Below, piece after piece: positions 37,177-38,033 of a stretch of 64,000 nucleotides of DNA. Made by a program: the position numbers and the translations under genes. The notes beneath the pieces were generated by a model. The model searched no databases, was not told the origin of the DNA, and worked only from the letters and a program-made list of their open reading frames with translations. Origin of the DNA: Candidatus Hodarchaeota archaeon (GTDB lineage Archaea; Asgardarchaeota; Lokiarchaeia; Sigyniarchaeales; SOKP01); NCBI GenBank assembly GCA_048887225.1, contig JBHLJY010000011.1, forward strand, positions 13,326 through 77,325, written 5' to 3'. The first letter of the stretch is position 1. The number at the start of each line of letters is the position of its first letter.

Positions 37177-37635
37177 TTGATGAAAAATAATAAAAAGGAT
37201 AAAATTCCTTCCGGAAAAGATGAAATTGAAGACAAAGAAGGATTAAATGTCTGTTACGATAAAAAAGAACTTAATGAATTTTTACCTCATTTAATGACAG
37301 AAATCTCTAACAAAAAGCAATCAATGAAAATTAATTCAATTAGTAATGATAATGAGGAAAAAATCCAAAATCAATATGAGTGTCTTCCAAATGAGTTAAT
37401 TAATCCTGGAGCAATTGATTTTATTAGAAGATGTACTAAGAATGAAGAGGCTTTCGAAATATTAGATTATTTATTGGAAAGAAATGAGTTAACTCGTGAA
37501 GAGTATAATTTATATAAAAAACAAATTATGAAGAAGGGGGGTTTAAAAACCCTTATTAAAGAGAGTGGTGGTCTAAAGCGTCCGGGATATTATTTAAATA
37601 AATATTATAAAAAAGATAGTAAAAATCAAAATTAA
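37177..37635 (+). CDS. DUF2095 family protein
   Basis: PHL..EI, P..IDFIRRC...EA.EI.DYL....E, K.PGYY. Confidence 0.8.
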   Translation: MMKNNKKDKIPSGKDEIEDKEGLNVCYDKKELNEFLPHLMTEISNKKQSMKINSISNDNEEKIQNQYECLPNELINPGAIDFIRRCTKNEEAFEILDYLLERNELTREEYNLYKKQIMKKGGLKTLIKESGGLKRPGYYLNKYYKKDSKNQN

Positions 37636-37662: not shown

Positions 37663-37746
37663 ATTTATATTGATGATGAACTCTATGACAAATAGAGCTG
37701 CTCGCTCGGCAGCGAGGAACCTGTCGCCCCAATCTGAAATATAAAT
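37663..37746 (+). ncRNA. Box C/D guide sRNA, predicted to target LSU rRNA Gm2251 (E. coli numbering)
   Basis: Box C ATGATGA (37673-79), box D CTGA (37734-37), perfect 9-bp terminal stem ATTTATATT/AATATAAAT with a 3-nt K-turn bulge, guide TGTCGCCCCAA complementary to the P-loop UGGGGCG; GC-rich island in AT-rich DNA. Confidence 0.8.
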
Positions 37747-37763
37747 TTCTTTCTAATTAACAG

Positions 37764-38033
37764 TCACGTTTTATTTTCTATTTCTTTTTTAAAATTTAAT
37801 CCTCTTTCTGTTAGAAAATATTCGTTATTATTTTTATAAATTAAATTTAAATCAAGTAATACAGGGATCCTTCCTTTAATACACGATAACGAACACCCTG
37901 TAAATAGTTTTATAATTTTAAAATTCTTTGCACCTCGATCAATTGCCAGCAGAATCTCAATTCCCATATCTCCTAATAAATATTTCAAATCGTCTACAGA
38001 TTCATTCTCAAAAAATTTATCGTCTTTAGGCAT
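37764..38033 (-). CDS. Small winged-helix protein
   Basis: EILLAI..G, I...TG.S...I..RI..L..L.LI, Y.LT.RG. Confidence 0.75.
   Translation of the reverse strand: MPKDDKFFENESVDDLKYLLGDMGIEILLAIDRGAKNFKIIKLFTGCSLSCIKGRIPVLLDLNLIYKNNNEYFLTERGLNFKKEIENKT

Follow-up and report, generated by a model that had tools for sequence, protein, structure and literature searches.

The window, a 64,000-nucleotide stretch of DNA on contig C11 of a 3.27-Mb assembly (30.5% G+C, 98% complete), carries what is probably (about three chances in four) a gene for a box C/D sRNA of approximately 84–88 nt from a Lokiarchaeial (Asgard) archaeon, whose D guide would direct formation of Gm2251 in the P-loop of 23S rRNA and whose second spacer would pair with helix 89. 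The elements of the locus, in window coordinates, are as follows.

37177–37635, plus strand: DUF2095 gene, the upstream neighbour (Pfam E 8e-11), syntenic in most of family f1
37663–37746, plus strand: predicted box C/D sRNA gene, as read from the sequence
37663–37671, plus strand: 5′ strand of the terminal stem (C-stem of the C/D K-turn), AUUUAUAUU (DNA ATTTATATT), from sequence and covariation
37672–37679, plus strand: K-turn bulge GAU (37672–37674) and box C AUGAUGA (37673–37679), box C being invariant in the alignment
37680–37692, plus strand: spacer 1, the predicted D′ guide, ACUCUAUGACAAA (13 nt), with the motif UGACAA at 37686–37691, from conservation in the alignment
37693–37696, plus strand: degenerate D′ box UAGA with a conserved GA, an NNGA directly 5′ of the covarying hairpin
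37697–37713, plus strand: K-turn-capping hairpin, with GCUGC (37697–37701), loop UCGCUCG and GCAGC (37709–37713), from covariation
37714–37721, plus strand: C′ box, with bulge GAG (37714–37716), sheared GA (37717–37718) and ACC, aligned to NAUGAUGN of the homologues
37722–37733, plus strand: predicted D guide UGUCGCCCCAAU (12 nt), N+5 base C37729, near-invariant across the order
37734–37737, plus strand: box D CUGA, invariant in the alignment
37738–37746, plus strand: 3′ strand of the terminal stem, AAUAUAAAU (DNA AATATAAAT), from sequence and covariation
37747–37754, plus strand: T-rich tract TTCTTTCT directly 3′ of the stem, a possible archaeal terminator
37764–38033, minus strand: winged-helix (HTH_45-like) gene of 89 aa, convergent, a neighbour kept across the whole order

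The two ends of the RNA define a C/D motif with the exact sequence geometry of a K-turn, composed of a canonical 9-bp stem, a 3-nt bulge, predicted tandem sheared G-A and A-G pairs, for which box C provides G37675 and A37676, and a predicted U-U pair. The stem can be extended to 11 bp via G37662–U37747 and A37661–U37748. The 9-bp stem, the 3-nt bulge, box C (ATGATGA in the DNA) and box D (CTGA) are thus all as the original prediction had described them. When the 3.27-Mb genome was scanned strictly for box C and box D with a stem of at least 6 bp, two sites came up, the present locus being the better, and the reversed control gave one.

Homologues were found by BLAST in 14 related genomes. Aligned with MAFFT, 15 sequences show no variation in box C, box D, the UGACAA motif and a pair of internal GA dinucleotides, nor in most of the D guide. 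All nine pairs of the terminal stem show changes on both sides, in this alignment and again in 55 distinct homologues, with variants such as CCAGU/ACUGG, UGGCA/UGCCA and UUUCAUU/AAUGAAA. The internal hairpin, GCUGC/GCAGC in the window copy, has four of its five pairs changed on both sides and 95% of cells paired in the 15 sequences, and five of five and 98% in the 55. For the whole structure, 91% of cells pair across the 55 sequences and 14 of 14 pairs have changed on both sides, compared with 34–45% of cells paired in slid controls; the 55-sequence alignment was fitted to a covariance model and leans towards the modelled structure, and the independent MAFFT result agrees.

That covariance model, built on the 15-sequence MAFFT alignment, detected exactly one copy in 125 of the 151 genomes of the Lokiarchaeial order, distributed as 112 of 131 in family f1, 11 of 14 in f2, the single genome of f3 and none of the four of f4. 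The UGACAA motif is near-invariant across the order. Comparative evidence of this kind confirms a real, conserved and structured RNA gene. Searches with the model outside the order gave no matches, which is not to be read as absence, because a pattern search turned up C/D RNAs of compact form (56 nt) in two other Asgard families, with a P-loop guide of the GCCGCCCCAGU type.

The central part of the RNA was originally taken to be devoid of C′ and D′ boxes. The alignment instead reveals the degenerate D′ box UAGA and a C′ box, GAG-GA-ACC, on either side of the covarying hairpin. The GA of C′ and the middle A of its bulge are invariant, and most homologues read NAU-GA-UGN at this place. The succession of NNGA, hairpin, bulge and GA has K-turn geometry, so that the C′/D′ motif would be closed by a stem, where family f2 has the usual short K-loop (8 nt). 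An internal C′/D′ motif is therefore recognizable in the alignment, in degenerate form in the window copy. The spacers of this copy measure 13 nt between C and D′ and 12 nt between C′ and D; among the homologues the D spacer is 12–13 nt in nearly all, and the D′ spacer ranges from 11 to 20 nt.

Because the alignment shows a D′ box, a hairpin-capped K-turn, a C′ box and spacers of 13 and 12 nt, the sRNA family is assigned to the archaeal dual-guide layout. The eukaryote-like, single-guide layout put forward in the original prediction does not describe a family with a C′/D′ K-turn, 12–13-nt spacers and a second guide that covaries with helix 89. The D′ half is weakened only in the window copy and its three closest relatives.

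The two hairpins once thought to replace the second guide, CTCTAT/ATAGAG and CTCGCT/AGCGAG, are both present as letter strings, but the second is limited to the four closest sequences and the helix common to the family is GCUGC/GCAGC. Pairing of CUCUAU with AUAGAG is not established, with 75–81% of cells paired and almost no covariation, and CUCGCU/AGCGAG was rejected as a family helix, its four sequences showing one compensatory change, from C-G to U-A. As naked RNA, the CUCGCU/AGCGAG fold has a free energy of −16.3 kcal/mol and the GCUGC/GCAGC fold one of −10.6 kcal/mol; with its lower energy the former may be an alternative, protein-free fold. UGACAA (37686–37691) is also complementary to the start of the RNA’s own D guide, UGUCG or UUGUCG (37722–37727), over 5–6 bp. 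Intramolecular pairing of UGACAA with UUGUCG (6 bp possible) was rejected as a conserved element, not being kept in two homologues (G037 and G039). Such complementarity might serve to hide the guide, or might simply follow from the likeness of the helix 89 sequence.

Pairing of the D guide was judged on large-subunit (LSU) rRNAs of the same genus and order because the 23S rRNA of the host was not found in its 98%-complete assembly. Counted on E. coli rrlH, the P-loop sequence UGGGGCG spans positions 2249–2255, and with A37731 on U2249 the fifth base 5′ of box D, C37729, lies opposite G2251. In the 23S rRNAs of two genomes of the same genus (G003 and G006), positions 2246–2258 read GGCUGGGGCGGCU, to which the guide, 3′-UAACCCCGCUGU-5′, pairs through its positions 3–11, forming 9 bp with one G-U and with C-G at N+5. 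The original prediction had asked for at least 9 bp with the cognate 23S rRNA; the duplex just reaches this length, with the G-U pair counted and on a same-genus rather than cognate sequence.

Across the order the D guide is nearly invariant. Of 10 sRNA–LSU pairs, 9 have the P-loop as their best contiguous LSU site over N+5, and N+5 faces G2251 in 10 of the 11 pairs aligned at the P-loop. In one genome of the genus (G006), the guide carries a C-to-U change and two other LSU sites score slightly higher. The guide also co-varies with its target between families. The helix 80 pair is C2248–G2256 in f1 and f3 and G2248–C2256 in f2; all 12 f2 guides have C at position 2, pairing with G2248, where f1 and f3 have A or G. 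A G at this position in four f1 genomes of three genera would bring the duplex to 10 bp, and a 10-bp duplex is seen in G013 with its own LSU. Retention of U at guide position 10 in f2, opposite C2256, counts against this reading. Two f2 genera have a G there that would match an f2-type C2256, their own LSUs not being assembled. The placement of C37729 on G2251 has thus held up, with N+5 on the equivalent nucleotide, near-invariance of the guide and co-variation of guide and target between families. The D guide most likely directs 2′-O-methylation of the P-loop nucleotide equivalent to G2251.

Two homologues diverge in this region. In G017 (L078) an AU insertion and an extra A in the D guide shift N+5 to G2250 and leave approximately 7 bp; in G078 (L081) the D guide reads GUCACUAUAAU, the P-loop complementarity is lost and Ns hide part of the hairpin. 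Such copies may have acquired a new target or be in decay.

The conserved core of spacer 1, UGACAA, is complementary to UUGUCA/G in the 5′ strand of helix 89 (E. coli 2457–2462), and same-genus LSUs read GUUGUCAC at positions 2455–2467. Here too the guide follows the rRNA. In f3, the rRNA changes U2458C and A2462G are matched by guide changes A-to-G and U-to-C, and an additional guide C pairs with G2456; in f2, AGG at rRNA positions 2464–2466 is matched by CCU in the guide. In part of the window’s genus GUGACAAA makes nine contiguous pairs with helix 89, whereas the D′ guide of the window copy makes only 6 bp. Judged by this co-variation across the family, spacer 1 is a second guide on the 5′ strand of helix 89. 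Its N+5 position falls on U2460 in 9 of 11 sRNA–LSU pairs and on C2461 in the other two, and D′ spacers reach 16–20 nt in several genera. Because spacing and N+5 vary in this way, pairing with helix 89 is better supported than one fixed methylation site, and a fixed second site predicted from the D′ guide is not secure. The helix 70/71 strand (E. coli 1943–1950, UUGUCGUA), which scores well as a D′ target in f2, was rejected, since it reads UUGUCUGG in f1 and UUGCCGG in f3 and the guide follows helix 89. In the homologue of G013 (L077, C50:21171-21325) UGACAA is tandemly duplicated (C-UGACAA-UGACAA-U) and the D′ spacer is approximately 17 nt long.

The protein components are encoded in the host genome. 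Genes for Nop5 and fibrillarin lie adjacent to each other on contig C13, and two genes belong to the L7Ae family. The sole SpoU-family methyltransferase is a TrmJ/YjtD-type protein of 280 aa (G000:C9:53787-54278; L145:1423-2265), scoring 165.9 bits, just below the TIGR00050 cut-off of 167.15. An RlmB-type SpoU_sub_bind domain was not found in the genome.

These components suggest how the RNA might work. L7Ae would bind two K-turns, that of the C/D motif with its long terminal stem and that of the internal C′/D′ motif closed by the 5-bp hairpin, and Nop5 and fibrillarin would then assemble on the sRNA. The D guide, UGUCGCCCCAAU, would base-pair with the helix 80 P-loop of 23S rRNA, where fibrillarin would 2′-O-methylate the G opposite C37729, equivalent to E. 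coli G2251. The second spacer would pair, via UGACAA, with the 5′ strand of helix 89 (E. coli 2456–2466, N+5 mostly on U2460). With one guide on helix 80 and another on helix 89, a single RNA would therefore contact two strands of the peptidyl-transferase centre approximately 210 nt apart. In the window copy the D′ half may only pair with rRNA, or only contribute structure. The D-guide reading is supported by covariation of the structure, near-invariance of the guide, co-variation of guide and target, the presence of Nop5, fibrillarin and L7Ae genes and the fact that an RlmB-type enzyme was not found; transcription, RNP assembly and both methylations are what we infer from these sequence data.

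The C/D K-turn RNP might instead serve mainly as an rRNA folding chaperone, holding the strands of helices 80 and 89 while the peptidyl-transferase centre assembles, with methylation absent or secondary. Its two conserved spacers do match two strands of the peptidyl-transferase centre, UGACAA is invariant even though it lies anywhere from 0 to 7 nt away from D′, a pattern more in keeping with pairing than with site-specific methylation, and double guides have been proposed to act as chaperones (PMC4644070). As the main function this is nonetheless unlikely. The D guide keeps its exact 12-nt spacing and a Watson–Crick C-G at N+5 in nearly all homologues, and its target is a universally 2′-O-methylated G for which an alternative methylase was not found in the genome. 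Chaperone and methylation roles are, moreover, not exclusive.

It is also rather improbable, on present evidence, that one RNA clamps the P-loop and helix 89 together as an assembly chaperone while the window’s subclade is in transition from an archaeal dual guide to a eukaryote-like single guide, in which case it could share ancestry with snR67/U31. The long terminal stem and the replacement of the C′/D′ half by hairpins in this subclade are the features on which the idea of a dual-to-single transition draws.

Another RNA (a tRNA, an mRNA or a different rRNA site) would be the true target of the D guide if the P-loop match were coincidental. Taken by itself the match is not statistically significant, as 26% of shuffled guides reach its score somewhere in the approximately 5 kb of rRNA; further LSU sites score within 1–1.5 units, and many archaeal guides are without an rRNA target (PMC4644070). 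The P-loop is, however, the only site conserved in all LSUs examined, and the flanks of the guide co-vary with it. Among the 18 tRNAs parsed, which did not cover intron-bearing tRNAs, the best match was 7 bp, and tRNA was rejected as the target; in the genome no longer complement to the guide was found besides the antisense strand of the gene itself and one 11-mer. A different target is, on this balance, very improbable. Outside the window, G000:C4:87581-87592 (plus strand) carries 12 nt, GTCGCCCCAATC, identical to D-guide sequence together with the opening base of box D; approximately 0.03 chance matches of this type are expected, and box C and box D were not found beside it.

The stem begins 27 nt after the end of the DUF2095 ORF (37635), close to the 30 nt originally estimated. 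Most f1 genomes have DUF2095 followed by the sRNA, facing a convergent HTH_45 gene, whereas genus g8 and family f2 have the sRNA downstream of HTH_45 on the same strand. The HTH_45 gene always adjoins the sRNA, with its relative orientation inverted between most of f1 and g8 plus f2 (L013, L098–L100 and L109–L116 versus L041). The gene upstream of the sRNA is a different one in two lineages besides that of the window. Because the upstream gene and the orientation of HTH_45 change between lineages, no single mRNA is a constant partner, and an independent sRNA gene would fit the changed upstream gene at least as well as processing from the DUF2095 transcript. Many homologues have T-rich tracts 3′ of the stem, and TATA-like, A-T-rich words occur approximately 25–30 nt 5′ of it; both say little because the DNA is 70% A+T. 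The position just past a stop codon, between convergent genes and ahead of a T-rich tract, would suit a cis-acting, L7Ae-binding K-turn or terminator in the 3′ untranslated region of the DUF2095 or HTH_45 mRNA, with no trans-acting guide, but this is extremely improbable given that conservation is highest in the unpaired spacers, that the full set of C, D, C′ and D′ boxes is kept together with the 12-nt spacing, and that the neighbouring genes rearrange as described.

Archaeal box C/D sRNAs have been predicted to act on the G2251 equivalent (G2520 in the published alignment) in three species (PMC4644070); examples are an sR7 that places its D′ guide on G2520 and its D guide on U2544, and an sRNA of Methanopyrus that pairs at G2490/G2520 (Dennis et al. 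2015, PMC4644070). The present sRNA has in common with these the type of RNP, the target nucleotide, dual guides and the N+5 rule. They are compact (approximately 55–60 nt), come mostly from thermophiles and have their second target within approximately 30 nt, whereas the present sRNA is approximately 84 nt long, with a terminal stem of 9–11 bp, a hairpin-capped C′/D′ motif and a second guide directed approximately 210 nt away, to helix 89. The likeness is one of type and target, sequence homology not having been shown. For the hairpin cap there is a counterpart in sR102 of Methanococcus maripaludis, the sequence of which is given in an Additional file (PMC4644070). In this C/D sRNA of a mesophilic archaeon, a stem-loop, AUUAAAC/GUUUAAU, stands between D′ (CUGA) and C′, so that a K-turn takes the place of a K-loop, and the terminal stem is 5 bp long; the likeness is read from the published sequence and not from a structural analysis. 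The guides of the two RNAs differ, and they are not homologous.

Human SNORD31 (U31) is a box C/D guide for the same universal Gm. Both it and yeast snR67 act on the Gm predicted as the target of the present sRNA, and all three have a terminal stem adjoining boxes C and D. The product of snR67 is Gm2619, equivalent to E. coli Gm2251 (PMC11121408). Its second target is Um2724, whereas that of the present sRNA would be helix 89, and the present sRNA keeps the archaeal 12-nt spacing. An Rfam search at the locus gave no ncRNA match at gathering score, and the sub-threshold C/D matches were only SNORD43, snR60, TBR7 and sR5 (E 0.8–7), with SNORD31 and snR67 not among them.

Gm2251 is in contact with C75 of the P-site tRNA. 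Bacteria make it with the protein RlmB and mitochondria with Mrm1-Pet56, both protein-only SPOUT enzymes; the product is the same as that predicted here, in a genome in which no RlmB-type gene was found. An RNA-guided route to the P-loop across the Lokiarchaeia order, together with this null result, would amount to an RNA solution in a lineage close to the eukaryotic stem. The literature searched yielded no published description of Asgard C/D sRNAs. The RNA is of an ordinary kind and somewhat unusual build, and the gain is one of annotation and no surprise, because there are precedents for RNAs of this kind, for the target and for a C′/D′ motif capped by a hairpin. Some genomes of the order that carry a homologue are closed, single-contig assemblies, which makes the prediction testable in any such strain that is in culture.

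Two further observations concern the rRNA and other loci. The 23S rRNAs of the window’s genus are 3494 and 3517 nt long (L026 in G003 and L030 in G006), that of a sister genus is 3352 nt (L025 in G013) and that of f2 is approximately 3105–3183 nt (L023 in G032); the extra 300–400 nt or so presumably lie in expansion segments. A looser genome scan, for box C, box D and a stem of at least 4 bp, returned 30 sites and four in the reversed control. Among C/D-like candidates are G000:C6:~19881 (minus strand), with terminal stem GAACC/GGUUC, and G000:C1:~100722 (plus strand), with terminal stem UUAACU/AGUUAA; these have stems of 5–7 bp and span 65–68 nt from box C through box D.
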